Sequence record: PV806175.1
Length of the DNA stretch: 64,000 bases
Direction: 5' to 3' (one strand)
DNA from: Escherichia phage CCU7
The notes under the pieces were generated by a model, which saw only the letters and a list, made by a program, of their open reading frames with translations, was not told where the DNA came from and searched no databases. Below are positions 41,216 through 64,000 of this stretch, piece by piece; position 1 is the first letter of the stretch; each line of letters begins with the position of its first letter. A program made the position numbers and the translations under genes.

Positions 41216-41901
<686 letters not shown>

Positions 41902-41913
41902 TTTCACAAAACA

Positions 41914-41948
41914 GTTTACATAAGGATGATGGCGTGTTACTATCATCC
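41914..41948 (+). promoter_or_regulatory. early promoter with stem-loop (PeSL-like) upstream of ipI-like gene
   Basis: GTTTAC, 18-bp spacer, TACTAT; inverted repeat GGATGAT / ATCATCC flanking the -10. Confidence 0.5.
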
Positions 41949-41977
41949 TATCAAATAAACGACCTCAAGGAAATAAA

Positions 41978-42265
41978 ATGAAAACCTATAAAGAATTTAT
42001 ATCACCTGATGCTAACGTTTCTACTCTGACTGAAGCAACCCTTACTTCCGAAGTTATTAAAGCAAATAAAGGACGTGAGGGCAAACCAATGATTAGTCTG
42101 GCTGACGGCGAAGAAGTAAAAGGTACTGTTTACTTAGGGGATGGATGGTCTGCTAAGAAAGATGGCGCTACTATTGTTATCTCTCCGGCTGAAGAGACTG
42201 CACTGTTTAAAGCTAAGCACATTTCTGTAGCTCAGCTTAAAATTATTGCAAAAACTCTTCTGTAA
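41978..42265 (+). CDS. ipI: internal protein I-like (capsid-targeted, injected)
   Basis: 95 aa (T4 IPI 95 aa); N-terminal MKTYKEF capsid-targeting sequence with LTE protease site near residue 19; early promoter upstream. Confidence 0.65.
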   Translation: MKTYKEFISPDANVSTLTEATLTSEVIKANKGREGKPMISLADGEEVKGTVYLGDGWSAKKDGATIVISPAEETALFKAKHISVAQLKIIAKTLL

Positions 42266-42268
42266 GTA

Positions 42269-42307
42269 GTTTACATGCCGATAGGACTATGTTATAATAG
42301 TCCTATC
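42269..42307 (+). promoter_or_regulatory. early promoter with stem-loop (PeSL-like)
   Basis: GTTTAC, 18-bp spacer, TATAAT inside loop of perfect 10-bp inverted repeat GATAGGACTA / TAGTCCTATC. Confidence 0.6.
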
Positions 42308-42336
42308 AAAACAAAATGAGTAAATGGAGAAATAAA

Positions 42337-42522
42337 ATGAAACGCGCTGAACTGATTCGTAATGTTGCTGTAGTAATTGCTTCAATGGCTTTTAGCTTTT
42401 CGATGTTTGTAGGATTCATTTGTGGACTACTGACAACAACTGAAAACTCTATCTCATTGGTAGTAGCATTTCTAATCGGCTTAATCGCTATCGTTATGGA
42501 TAAAATTGCAAAAGGTGAGTAA
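42337..42522 (+). CDS. small membrane protein
   Basis: ATG with GGAG RBS; two hydrophobic segments; early promoter + stem-loop upstream. Confidence 0.5.
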   Translation: MKRAELIRNVAVVIASMAFSFSMFVGFICGLLTTTENSISLVVAFLIGLIAIVMDKIAKGE

Positions 42523-42885
42523 ATGAAATATCATGTATATGCAGATTTTGAAGCAAATCCTTCTAAAGACCCTGATTGTCGTTTGATACGCAGACCATTT
42601 GATTCAGCAGCTCAAGCATGGGCTTGGATTAAATCTAAATCGCCTGGTTATATGTTCTTTGAAGTAGTCGATGACAATGGTACACTGCATCCAGAACCTA
42701 CAGAAACTATTAATTTCCTTCTGTTTGCTGGTTATGACTGTTATCCTCTTGGTGGTATTGATGATCTTGTTGCTACAGGAAAAACTGTTGAAGCTCTTCG
42801 TGAAATCTACAAAAATGCTGAAGAAAATTTTGACTGGTACCAGATTGTAAATGCACATACTTTTGAAGCGGTGGAACACTCATGA
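42523..42885 (+). CDS. hypothetical protein (120 aa)
   Basis: ORF tightly packed after upstream gene; no recognisable motif. Confidence 0.5.
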   Translation: MKYHVYADFEANPSKDPDCRLIRRPFDSAAQAWAWIKSKSPGYMFFEVVDDNGTLHPEPTETINFLLFAGYDCYPLGGIDDLVATGKTVEALREIYKNAEENFDWYQIVNAHTFEAVEHS

Positions 42886-43172
42886 TTCTTTATGCTAAAG
42901 TAAAATCTGTCGAGAATGGATACGAAAGCGATCAACGTGCAGCTAAAGCATTGATCGATGATTATGGCATTTTAACATATTTTGAAGTTGAAAAGGTTTA
43001 CATTGACCGTTCGTCTTCACAGGTTAAATTACTCTGTGAAGATGATAAATTTAACACAGTTAACTTTGATTTCTTTATTGAAACAGAAAAAGGCCCTCTT
43101 GAATATGATATTTTCAAGAATCCTTTGAAATTACGTTGCATTGAATATAATTACATTAATATGGTACGGTGA
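42882..43172 (+). CDS. hypothetical protein (96 aa)
   Basis: ORF with 4-nt overlap to upstream ORF. Confidence 0.5.
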   Translation: MILYAKVKSVENGYESDQRAAKALIDDYGILTYFEVEKVYIDRSSSQVKLLCEDDKFNTVNFDFFIETEKGPLEYDIFKNPLKLRCIEYNYINMVR

Positions 43173-43176
43173 TTAA

Positions 43177-62080: not shown

Positions 62081-62554
62081 ATGATTATCAATGAAAACTC
62101 TTGGCACTTTAAAATTTATGCCGCGTTTAATAGTACATGGAATCGTCCGAAAACGTTGTGTGCTTATTTTTGGAAAACGTTTCTCCCGGTATTGTTTGTT
62201 TCGATTATTGGATTTGCGATTTTAGCAGCGGCCACAATCGTTGGCCATGAAATTTTAACTAAATTCTTTGTCTTTAGTAGTTTATGGTCATTGGTTCCGG
62301 CCTCAATTGGTGTAGGTGTTTTATTCATTGCATTATGTGTTGGTATTTCTATAGTTTTAGTATTAGGCATACCGTGGCTAATCGACTTATATAGAGAGCG
62401 GAAGTATTATAAAGAAATTGAGCTCATTGCGCAAAACCAAGAACGAATTAAAAATGGACTTGAGCCTATTGAACGTAAGAAATCATTAATAGGTGAATAC
62501 CTTAAAGCTCGTAAAGAAAAAGTCTGTCCTACTCTTGAATATAAGGCTAAATAA
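62081..62554 (+). CDS. membrane protein (multi-TM)
   Basis: Hydrophobic segments FLPVLFVSIIGFAILAAATIV and LVPASIGVGVLFIALCVGISIVLVLGI. Confidence 0.5.
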   Translation: MIINENSWHFKIYAAFNSTWNRPKTLCAYFWKTFLPVLFVSIIGFAILAAATIVGHEILTKFFVFSSLWSLVPASIGVGVLFIALCVGISIVLVLGIPWLIDLYRERKYYKEIELIAQNQERIKNGLEPIERKKSLIGEYLKARKEKVCPTLEYKAK

Positions 62555-63540
62555 TGAAAACGATTGTTAAGGCTTACTTTGGTAGCCACCTTTATGGGAC
62601 GTCTACTCCTGAATCTGACGTTGATTTTAAAGAAATTTATGTCCCTCATGCTCGTGATATTTTGACCGGTAACGTTAAAGAACATATGAGCAAGAACACG
62701 AATAACACATCTTCTAAGAACACAAAAGACGACGTAGACCATGAGTTGTATAGTCTCAAATATTTCTTTAAACTAGCTGCAGATGGTGAAACCGTCGCAT
62801 TAGATATGCTTCACACTCCACCGAGTCTAGTAGTTAAATCTGATTTGCCTGATGTATGGAAGTATATTCAAGATAACAGATCTCGTTTCTATACCACTAA
62901 CATGAAATCTTATTTAGGGTATGTCCGTAAGCAAGCTTCTAAATATGGCGTCAAGGGTTCTCGTCTGGCTGTTCTCCGACAAGCCCTTAAACGTTCTAAT
63001 GAATGGGGACAATACTTTGATAACGGTGCAGTAATTCGTTTATCACATATGAAGAATGTTCTGCCTATAGGTGAATTTGCTTCGTGGATTGAAACCGAAA
63101 ACGAGAAAACAGGTAAGCAAACATTCTATAATCTGTTAGACCGTAAATTCCAAGACACGTTAACCAATAAAGAGTTCAATGCCATCCTGGTTAAACTGGA
63201 AGAGAATTATGGTGAACGTGCTCGTAAGGCAGAAGCTAACGAAGGTATTGATTGGAAAGCATTGAGTCATGCATGCCGTGGTGGACTTCAGCTCTTAGAA
63301 ATTTACAAAACCGGCGACCTGGTTTACCCGCTTCAGGATGCTCCATTTATTCTCGATGTTAAGCTTGGTAAACATACGTTTAAAACCGTACAGGAATTCT
63401 TAGAAGATATCGTTGACCAAGTTGAACATGCCGCAGAACAAGCCGCTAAGAACGGTATGCAGCAAAAAGTAGATATGAGTTTCTGGGATGACTTCCTTGA
63501 GCAAGTCTACTTAGAAAACCACAATTCATACTATAAATGA
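62554..63540 (+). CDS. nucleotidyltransferase-fold protein (328 aa)
   Basis: N-terminal G-S-H-L-Y-G-T-S-T-P-E-S-D-V-D-F matches NTase-fold G-S ... D-x-D signature; ATGA coupling to upstream membrane protein. Confidence 0.55.
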   Translation: MKTIVKAYFGSHLYGTSTPESDVDFKEIYVPHARDILTGNVKEHMSKNTNNTSSKNTKDDVDHELYSLKYFFKLAADGETVALDMLHTPPSLVVKSDLPDVWKYIQDNRSRFYTTNMKSYLGYVRKQASKYGVKGSRLAVLRQALKRSNEWGQYFDNGAVIRLSHMKNVLPIGEFASWIETENEKTGKQTFYNLLDRKFQDTLTNKEFNAILVKLEENYGERARKAEANEGIDWKALSHACRGGLQLLEIYKTGDLVYPLQDAPFILDVKLGKHTFKTVQEFLEDIVDQVEHAAEQAAKNGMQQKVDMSFWDDFLEQVYLENHNSYYK

Positions 63541-63543
63541 TAA

Positions 63544-63560
63544 GGGCCTTCGGGCCCTTT
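63544..63560 (+). terminator. hairpin terminator after NTase-like gene
   Basis: GGGCC-TTCG-GGCCC followed by TTT. Confidence 0.5.
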
Positions 63561-63587
63561 AGGGGGTCAAAATATTTTTAAAAAGTA

Positions 63588-63640
63588 GTGTACATGCTTT
63601 TAGGATATGTTATTATAGGACCTATCAAAACAAGAGGAGA
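63588..63640 (+). promoter_or_regulatory. early promoter (PeSL-like)
   Basis: GTGTAC -35-like, 17-bp spacer, TATTAT, partial TAGGA...TAGGACCTA repeat, GAGGAG RBS. Confidence 0.45.
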
Positions 63641-63647
63641 AAACAAA

Positions 63648-63866
63648 ATGAAAACCAAAATGTTAGAAATGATTCGTGAAGCTGGTGATAAAGGTCTTAT
63701 GGTTAACACTCGTAATGCAGACCAACGTCAAGCATTCGGTGAACTGAAATCTAAAGGTCTGGTTAAAGCATCCTTGGGAATCGGTAATGCATTACGAGTC
63801 ACTTTGACTCCTGCCGGTAAAGCAGTGTTCTTTCAACCTCTTACCAAAAAATCTCGTCGCAAATAA
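63648..63866 (+). CDS. hypothetical basic protein (72 aa)
   Basis: ATG with GAGGAG RBS downstream of early promoter. Confidence 0.5.
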   Translation: MKTKMLEMIREAGDKGLMVNTRNADQRQAFGELKSKGLVKASLGIGNALRVTLTPAGKAVFFQPLTKKSRRK

Positions 63867-63868
63867 TT

Positions 63869-63900
63869 GTTTACTTTTGCTTTAAACATGTTATTATAGA
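63869..63900 (+). promoter_or_regulatory. early promoter
   Basis: GTTTAC, 17-bp spacer, TATTAT; followed by ATAGACCTATC element shared with other cassettes. Confidence 0.5.
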
Positions 63901-63936
63901 CCTATCGAAACGAAATGAGTAAATTTGGAGAATAAA

Positions 63937-64000
63937 ATGTTCAACGTTCAGATCAAAAAAGGTATCTATCGTAATAACGAAATCTCTGGTTCTTATGTTG
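63937..64000 (+). CDS. hypothetical protein, 5-prime end only (runs off window)
   Basis: ATG with GGAG RBS downstream of GTTTAC early promoter; open to window end. Confidence 0.3.
   Translation, partial: MFNVQIKKGIYRNNEISGSYV

Follow-up and report, generated by a model that had tools for sequence, protein, structure and literature searches.

Why does one promoter-like module recur upstream of so many small genes in the accessory region of a T4-type phage? The stretch analysed here (the window) comprises 64,000 nucleotides (nt) of Escherichia phage CCU7 (PV806175.1), and the region in question extends over its positions 41900-63940, where a model reading the bare sequence (the first-pass annotation) had reported recurrent early-promoter cassettes, many with a stem-loop, and had likened them to the promoter-early stem-loop (PeSL) elements of other T4-type phages. 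This region is the classic early accessory, or 'hyperplastic', part of a T4-type genome, and all of its genes lie on the + strand. It matches RB69-like T4-type phages (Mosigvirus) with 95-98% identity over 90-97% of its length, phiC120, Shf125875 and RB69 being the closest, and the RB69 annotation across it lists first 57B, ipI, tRNA genes, e.8-e.2, nudE, e, denV and vs.8-vs.3, followed by regB, vs, tk, rI and mobD.1, up to nrdC.11. Our analysis suggests that the cassettes are probably T4-type early promoters, most of which carry PeSL-type hairpins, and serve as preferred joints of gene shuffling.

On the promoter part of this reading the sequence comparison is clearest. In the window the pattern GTTTAC-N16-19-TANNAT was found 11 times on the + strand against 1.27 expected, a count reached in none of 100 shuffles, and nine of the 11 copies fall within 41900-63940. 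Likewise, 13 copies of GATAGGACTA were found allowing up to one mismatch (3.09 expected); they cover both arms of all four inverted repeats that the first-pass annotation had offered as examples (42280-42307, 49577-49604, 50870-50895 and 61206-61233, the third being matched at 50869-50896). Using a profile built from clear copies, we searched the window and obtained 15 strong and two weak (46336 and 46705) cassettes in the region, all on the + strand, with nothing comparable on the - strand of the window (Table 1; cassettes are named by their first position). The 22 kb accessory region thus holds 17 cassettes versus two in the remaining 42 kb of the window. Within a cassette the order is constant: a GTTTAC-like -35 element, a spacer of 18 nt (13 of the 17) or 17 nt (the other four), a TAnnnT -10 box, a conserved CTATCAA-like start region, a Shine-Dalgarno (SD) sequence and an ATG, and each cassette lies 20-75 nt 5' of a + strand ATG preceded by an SD. 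The -35 hexamer of the strong cassettes is GTTTAC in 13, ATTTAC in one and GTGTAC in one, while the weak two have GCGTAC and ATGTAC; the -10 boxes seen are TACTAT, TATAAT, TATAGT, TATTAT and TAGTAT. The first-pass count of at least 16 cassettes is borne out, as are its GTTTAC element and 17-18 nt spacer, but its TAnnAT was too narrow for the four -10 boxes that read TATAGT. Furthermore, an A/T-rich UP-like stretch (10-14 A/T among the 15 bases 5' of the -35) accompanies every cassette, and in a sample of related cassettes T14 and G15 of an extended -10, just 5' of the -10 box, are at least 90% conserved.

The -35 element stands at the T4 position and the consensus is that of Nolan et al. 2006 (PMC1524935, additional file 3), who predicted 58 early promoters in RB69. 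After transfer of their coordinates through the RB69-window alignment, 16 of the 17 cassettes mapped onto orthologous predicted promoters, as did both cassettes outside the region; the sole exception, 54990, lies in a stretch where RB69 differs. Cassettes are also present in T4 at orthologous genes (ipI, trna.4, e.8, e.7, ipIII, ipII, denV, regB, mobD.2, nrdC.10 and others), and the T4 regB promoter is referred to as a typical early promoter (PMC3014915). The profile was run over 52 sequences, which besides the window were 42 uncultivated T4-like contigs and nine annotated relatives, T4 among them; it gave 417 hits of at least 12 bits, all on the early-gene strand. Because of this orthology to predicted or known early promoters, the view that the cassettes act as sigma-70-dependent early promoters of T4 type in an RB69-like phage, and that each heads a small transcription unit, is well supported at the sequence level.

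Table 1. Cassettes and repeated terminator-like hairpins in the window (all on the + strand). Energies are in kcal/mol; ORF, open reading frame.
Feature	Position	Downstream gene (start)	-35	-10	Embedded stem	Energy	z	RB69 promoter	Remarks
Cassette	41914..41950	ipI-like gene (ATG 41978)	GTTTAC 41914-19	TACTAT 41938-43	41923-32 AGGATGATGG / 41940-49 CTATCATCCT	-13.2	-3.63	Pe:77187	Extra ORF joined here in RB69
Cassette	42269..42307	trna.4 homologue (ATG 42337)		TATAAT 42293-98	11 bp, 42280-90 / 42297-307	-16.9 (antisense -16.5)	-6.97	Pe:76459	ip7 inserted at 42311-42326 in Shf125875
Cassette	45998..46034	e.8 (ATG 46070)		TACTAT 46022-27	none		-0.67	Pe:73274	T4 e.8 promoter almost identical
Weak cassette	46336..46372		GCGTAC	TATTAT 46360-65	11 bp, 46344-54 / 46361-71	-15.6 (antisense -7.1)	-4.71	Pe:72936	Profile E 0.14; breakpoint 46377-79
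Weak cassette	46705..46742	frd.3 (ATG 46765)	ATGTAC 46705-10	TACTAT 46729-34	none			Pe:72567 and Pe:72354	Profile E 0.19; extra ORF in RB69 and other relatives, 31-nt overlap 46741-46771
Cassette	46992..47028	e.6 (ATG 47063)	ATTTAC	TATAAT 47016-21	47005-12 TGAGAGCA / 47021-28 TGCTCTCA	-13.8	-3.89	Pe:72069	
Cassette	48679..48715			TATAAT 48703-08	none		+1.05	Pe:70143	250 additional nt in 7 relatives, joined precisely at 48667-48679
Cassette	49566..49604	(ATG 49624)		TATAGT 49590-95	11 bp with one G.U, 49577-87 / 49594-604	-16.0 (antisense -8.9)	-5.31	Pe:69254	
Cassette	50858..50895	(ATG 50916)		TATAGT 50882-87	10 bp, 50870-79 / 50886-95	-12.7	-3.43	Pe:67959	201-nt ORF inserted in MM02 and mobillu, crossover at -35
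Cassette	53884..53937	denV (ATG 53941)		TACTAT 53908-13	53890-99 TTCCTCCAAG / 53928-37 CTTGGAGGAA, 3' arm holds SD	-18.9	-4.76	Pe:64934	
Cassette	54625..54714	internal-protein gene with conserved leader codons (ATG 54685)			none			Pe:64193	Breakpoints 54623 and 54707-14; repeat families D4, D5, D9
Cassette	54990..55040			TAGTAT 55014-19	weak, 55006-13 AATTGTGA / 55022-29 TCATAATT		-1.66	absent from list of Nolan et al.	Breakpoints 55038-62
Cassette	57093..57143	regB (ATG 57150)		TACTAT 57116-21	14 bp, 57099-57112 TTCTCCTCTAGTTG / 57130-57143 CAACTAGAGGAGAA, including SD	-21.4	-5.64	Pe:61376	Breakpoint 57089
Cassette	60746..60781	mobD.2a (ATG 60802)		TATAGT 60769-74	no strong stem		0.18	Pe:58138	Intrinsic terminator immediately 5' (D6 copy 60706-60739)
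Cassette	61195..61235	mobD.2 homologue (ATG 61253)		TATAGT 61219-24	13 bp with one U.G, 61204-16 / 61223-35	-18.3	-4.81	Pe:57689	
Cassette	63588..63623	(ATG 63648)	GTGTAC	TATTAT 63611-16	none			Pe:55296	GC-rich hairpin 5' at 63542-63559; breakpoint 63641-43
Cassette	63869..63904	nrdC.10		TATTAT 63892-97	none			Pe:55018	Breakpoint 63878
Cassette outside region	6643 (6626-6678)				none			Pe:112451	GC-rich hairpin GCCGAGACAGCTCGGTC 3' of predicted start
Cassette outside region	9495 (9480-9540)				none			Pe:109605	
Terminator-like hairpin family D6, 4 copies	44602-44635, 45147-45180, 45834-45867, 60706-60739								TAGCCCC...GGTTGGGGCTTTTT; 68-88% identical to reference copy

Ten of the 17 cassettes are of PeSL type, nine with a strong embedded stem and one (54990) with a weak stem. 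The strong hairpins have z scores from -3.4 to -7.0, at most one of 200 dinucleotide shuffles folding as well, and in all of them the spacer of the promoter supplies the 5' arm. In seven (41914, 42269, 46336, 46992, 49566, 50858 and 61195) the 3' arm begins with the last bases of the -10 box and extends to about +3; in the other two, 53884 (denV) and 57093 (regB), it lies over the SD of the downstream gene and contains GGAGG or GAGGAG. The arms are 6 to 28 nt apart, the loops of the SD-covering stems measuring 17-28 nt. Where the first-pass annotation had placed stems of 7-12 bp around the -10 of many cassettes, that position holds for the seven but not for denV and regB or for the cassettes devoid of an embedded hairpin (see below), and the longest stem, at regB, reaches 14 bp.

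We compared the pairing of spacers with downstream sequence among 305 unique cassettes; these come from related phages and are not independent, which makes the p-values optimistic and counts against the strength of the reading. A perfect Watson-Crick helix of at least 8 bp was present in 34.8% of them, versus 3.3% when spacers were swapped between cassettes and 0.9% when spacers were shuffled, and the mean folding energy was -13.1 kcal/mol versus -9.2 (swapped) and -7.8 (shuffled). The longest perfect helix and the folding energy were used for this comparison instead of the pairs spanning the two parts in minimum-energy folds, which were non-discriminating, the null also giving about eight pairs.

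The arms of the window and T4 differ at the ipI, trna.4, e.7, denV, regB and mobD.2 promoters but remain complementary. At ipI they read TGATGAGGTA/TACCTCATCA in T4 and AGGATGATGG/CTATCATCCT in the window; at mobD.2 three compensatory changes separate T4 (TTGACAAGATTA/TAATCTTGTCAA) from the window (TTGGTAGGATTA/TAGTCCTACCAA), and one separates the T4 e.7 promoter (AGGCTnAT/ATGAGCCT) from cassette 46336. T4 denV has CTCCTGTAG/CTACAGGAGA arms at the position equivalent to the 53884 stem, and T4 ipIII and ipII carry intact AATTGTGA/TCACAATT stems as the counterpart of the weak 54990 stem. The regB promoter was assessed by own- versus cross-lineage pairing in 12 lineages (the MAFFT alignment of the leaders lost the register of the arms, and column counts were not used): a lineage's own spacer and leader form on average 11.0 bp with -18.6 kcal/mol, and cross-lineage combinations 7.05 bp with -10.7 kcal/mol, which corresponds approximately to the anti-SD/SD core that they share. 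The main stem register was also scored in 116 randomly sampled cassettes of all kinds: the fraction of cells paired was 58.8%, the double changes numbered 125 and the covariation score reached 0.248, and none of the 500 shuffles or of the slid registers equalled it on any of these three measures, although related sequences inflate such tests and about 56% of the cells pair from column composition alone, so that part of the complementarity is consensus. We take these comparisons as evidence that promoter-embedded stems are under selection across T4-like genera.

That 56% of cells in the main register pair even after column shuffling, together with the derivation of the two innermost pairs from near-invariant promoter bases, is what one would expect if the stems were a chance by-product of complementary conserved motifs, namely the extended -10 and the start region. 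Such an origin is nevertheless very improbable, as the outer 8-12 pairs use the non-conserved spacer, the swap of spacers removes most of the long helices, and compensatory changes are seen both between T4 and the window and across the 12 regB lineages. The palindromes overlap the -10 and the mechanism of T4 early-promoter shut-off is described as incompletely understood, which would leave room for operators of a dimeric DNA-binding protein that shuts these promoters off. We give this idea next to no credence and rejected it, since arm sequences are wholly different between cassettes and between phages with complementarity kept; moreover, a strong stem is present in just about one-third of early promoters and the spacing of the arms varies widely.

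Gene shuffling was assessed by aligning the region with 11 Mosigvirus genomes and collecting structural gaps of at least 40 nt, which gave 33 breakpoint clusters. Breakpoints were found at 12 of the 17 cassette-bearing junctions versus 6 of the 39 other junctions (odds ratio 13.2, Fisher p = 1e-4), and 14 of the 33 clusters lie inside cassette intervals, which make up 7.7% of the bases (p = 5e-8). One apparent 8.5 kb deletion (42269-50858), in the genome L027, was excluded as an artefact in which a paralogous cassette had been matched at the truncated end of the locus. In ChristianSchoenbein, which lacks the ORF at 63648-63866, cassettes 63588 and 63869 have become one: its left half comes from the former, its right half from the latter, and the two meet in the shared ATGTTATTATAG. 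At several joints the overlap amounts to 31-46 nt and coincides exactly with the shared sequence of a cassette or terminator, and at the two internal-protein loci (41914-42340 and 54625-55060) relatives differ in the number and identity of genes. Repeated terminators may act as recombination joints as well, and so form a second kind of homology patch, because D6 copies flank an ORF (44676-45140, between the first two copies) that is absent from RB69, with a joint overlap of 31 nt. Cassettes are thus favoured, not exclusive, joints. The first-pass annotation had expected breakpoints of related genomes to coincide with cassettes, and they do, with chimeric cassettes at joints; it had also seen near-identical units of 30-40 bp as homology patches, and here several joints do lie in shared cassette sequence, but the identities at crossovers are shorter, 7-31 nt.

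The same association could arise by selection without any special mechanism, the cassettes marking those joints of self-contained promoter-gene units that are tolerated. At some crossovers the shared sequence is no more than a -35 heptamer, or 12 nt; the longest spacers between genes are those at cassette junctions; and genes are gained and lost where there is no cassette, as with the small ORFs at about 58960-59172 and 59169-59375 (within 58953-59372), which are missing in RB69 and others and whose joints (58953-59364) are overlapping stop/start codons with 5-10 nt shared. Selection as the whole explanation appears possible but doubtful in view of the long joint overlaps of exactly shared sequence, of the fused cassette of ChristianSchoenbein, which is a precise reciprocal-type product, and of the circular excision products detected between flanking PeSLs in RB49/phi1 (PMC2839356). 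We infer that recombination caused the breakpoints: as short dispersed repeats at gene boundaries, the cassettes would be preferred joints for gain, loss and replacement of small genes, and selection for self-contained units may add to the association.

What the hairpin itself might do depends on where transcripts begin. The predicted start, some 7 nt 3' of the -10 and close to the A of CTATCAA, lies within or 3' of the loop, so the cassette's own transcript would lack the 5' arm and, therefore, only read-through RNA (or single-stranded DNA) could form the stem. The spacer, otherwise free, would have evolved to pair with the sequence 3' of the -10, either the start region or the SD of the next gene. 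In this arrangement the hairpin would mark read-through RNA, acting as an attenuator or a 3'-end barrier that insulates the unit, and at denV and regB it would hide the ribosome-binding site in read-through RNA, so that translation of the two genes would depend almost wholly on the short-lived early transcripts of their own promoters. Such confinement fits the tight control that RegB is said to need (PMC3014915). An SD-like motif is present within the 3' arm of 40 of 105 strong stems. Furthermore, embedded hairpins and intrinsic terminators within 100 nt 5' are mutually exclusive (6/105 versus 49/197, odds ratio 0.18, p = 1.7e-5), as would be expected if both are alternative ways to insulate a unit from upstream transcription. 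Insulation also agrees with the attenuator role of a PeSL stem-loop of RB49/phi1, which was found by Arbiol et al. to cut downstream lacZ as strongly as rrnB T1 (PMC2839356).

Inverted repeats could instead act in DNA, as a cruciform or single-strand hairpin that modulates promoter opening or is targeted by a structure-specific nuclease or recombination protein and so causes the breakpoints directly; the stem-loop as a target of recombination proteins was indeed a speculation of Arbiol et al. (PMC2839356). Perfect palindromes are frequent among the stems and fold equally well on either strand (42269, Table 1), the main register is centred at -12/-11 of the -10 box, and one crossover falls in the loop and -10 sequence. 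Other crossovers, however, lie at the -35 or in the 5' untranslated region and not in the stem, pairing with the SD is meaningful only in RNA, and a cruciform is implausible for the SD-covering stems, whose 17-28 nt loops disfavour extrusion. In addition, for several stems the antisense strand folds clearly less stably (49566 and 46336, Table 1), because of G.U pairs on the sense strand, and the non-Watson-Crick pairs are biased to sense-strand G.U. We consider action in DNA unlikely, though it may apply to the perfect palindromes, and a role of the hairpin in RNA, by insulation or by SD masking, remains the preferred interpretation of the sequences.

If so, a 'spacer-leader' hairpin that is maintained by selection and forms in read-through RNA alone would be present at about one-third of T4-like early promoters, and the fate of an mRNA would be set by its promoter of origin. 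We propose this tentatively, as a possibility that falls somewhat short of an even chance. Translation, stability and read-through of a gene's mRNA would then depend on which promoter made it, translation of regB and denV would be limited to the few minutes in which their own early promoters are active, and the arrangement would mirror, for early genes, the known late-gene masking of e, soc, 49 and I-TevI. A hairpin of this kind is not described in the available parts of the reviews searched.

Besides the share of pairing owed to consensus and the relatedness of the sequences, several findings weigh against the reading as a whole. Seven of the 17 cassettes (45998, 46705, 48679, 54625, 60746, 63588 and 63869) have no embedded hairpin; two of these, 60746 and 63588, have a hairpin just 5', and the other five are without any. 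More than half of the breakpoint clusters (19 of 33) lie outside cassette intervals, in repeated terminators, at overlapping stop/start junctions and in gene interiors, and some crossover identities are as small as 7-12 nt. For T4 and RB69 no data set of start sites was found in the literature, the starts used here being predicted from geometry alone. The non-Watson-Crick pairs number 31 G.U to 11 A.C as a raw count but about 17:7 when grouped by family, partly forced by conserved bases (the TG of the extended -10), and are suggestive only as a sign of sense-strand RNA. Moreover, the embedded stems are followed by CAAAACA, CAAATTA or AAATCAAA, all A-rich and lacking a U-tract, and none of them was returned by the terminator scan; their reading as intrinsic (Rho-independent) terminators was ruled out, since there is no U-tract on either strand.

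How do these cassettes relate to elements already described? For Arbiol et al. 2010 (PMC2839356), a PeSL combines an early promoter with an A/T-rich stretch, a stem-loop, an SD and a start codon; its five subclasses differ in stem position, the commonest having the stem between -35 and -10 or overlapping the -10. The resemblance noted at first reading is upheld by these positions. Because stem-loops overlapping the -10 are counted there as PeSLs, the label is apt, and the cassettes would be the T-even version of an element known from other phages, in a lineage for which it had not been spelled out. A mismatch in topology with the figures for PST and nt-1, where the stem stands 5' of the -35, had been considered and was dropped, as -10-overlapping stems are among the commonest PeSL forms (PMC2839356). 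With the PeSLs of RB49/phi1 the cassettes share the composite module, a stem at or near the -10 and tolerance of G-T pairs, as well as their location in hyperplastic regions next to small ORFs and at joints of indels and replacements between close relatives (PMC2839356). By contrast, the RB49/phi1 promoters are near-perfect TTGACA/TATAAT with G/C-rich GGGG...CCCC stems, whereas here GTTTAC forms the -35 and the stems have a mixed or A/T-richer composition; terminator activity and mini-circles were shown there experimentally, whereas the present cassettes are known from sequence; and SD-covering stems, found here, are not described for RB49/phi1 in the accessible portion of that paper.

PeSLs were extended to T4/PST and KVP40/nt-1 by Comeau et al. 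2014 (PMC4122927), whose T-even consensus TTTACW-N17-TAYWAT near indels in hyperplastic regions is shared by our cassettes. The PST stem-loops are drawn just 5' of the promoter (AGNA-loop-TCNT), while in the window and in our T4 scan the strong stems connect the spacer with the start region or the SD. Neither PMC2839356 nor PMC4122927 mentions RB69-like phages. The RB69 study (PMC1524935) describes its promoters by logos alone; it nowhere uses the words stem-loop, inverted repeat or palindrome, and it draws no link to gene shuffling. For T-even phages, conserved early-promoter elements flanking internal-protein genes were reported by Repoila et al. 1994, as summarised in PMC2839356, which calls the elements of these loci on T4 early promoters PeSL-like analogues. 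T4 early promoters, A/T-rich stem-loops, a conserved leader and interchangeable genes are common to those loci and to the cassettes, but the design seen here reaches well beyond the two internal-protein loci. Finally, in T4 e, soc, 49 and I-TevI, RNA initiated upstream folds into a helix that sequesters the SD/AUG, and a promoter inside the helix gives translatable transcripts devoid of the 5' arm (PMC3014915). The predicted geometry of the denV and regB cassettes matches this promoter-inside-hairpin design, with the difference that the internal promoter is late in the former, delaying translation, and of early type in denV and regB.

The kind of element (PeSL) and the RB69 promoter predictions of 2006 were already known; what is new, as a modest addition, is the evidence suggesting that selection acts on the stems across T4-like genera and that the SD would be masked in read-through RNA by a sizeable subset of them. 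The analysis provides a concrete map of the transcription units in the accessory region of an RB69-like phage and extends the PeSL picture to Mosigvirus with a quantitative breakpoint test (about 13-fold as an odds ratio). The cassettes mark natural, tolerated insertion/deletion joints for phage engineering and account for a large part of the mosaicism of small genes in therapeutic T4-like phages, and the SD-covering stems of denV and regB are candidates for promoter-of-origin control of translation.

A few observations concern single cassettes and their surroundings. At the trna.4 promoter Shf125875 (2239-2308, corresponding to 42269-42340 of the window) has a T4-type stem, ATAGGGT/ACCCTAT, and the window and RB69 have the GATAGGACTA type. 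Exchange between lineages involves whole cassettes and not genes alone. Within the window, four to five cassettes have near-identical arms, by conversion or by convergence on the start-region consensus. The annotated start of RB69ORF146c (ATG 46364) overlaps the -10 box of cassette 46336; the in-frame ATG 46391, after GAGGAG, is a more plausible start, and the annotated gene is probably 27 nt too long. The Rfam scan of the region returned only two tRNAs, the genes for tRNA-Met (CAU) and tRNA-Arg (UCU) at 43772-43928; a third tRNA is present in the relatives ST2 and PhAPEC2, along with a replaced segment that starts at 43914. Six ORFs (starts 41978, 44676, 45266, 53601, 54361 and 54685) share the leader ATGAAAACnTAT...GAATTT (MKTY.EF), which resembles the conserved N-terminal leader of T4 internal proteins, and they are spread over four places, not just the two classical internal-protein loci.

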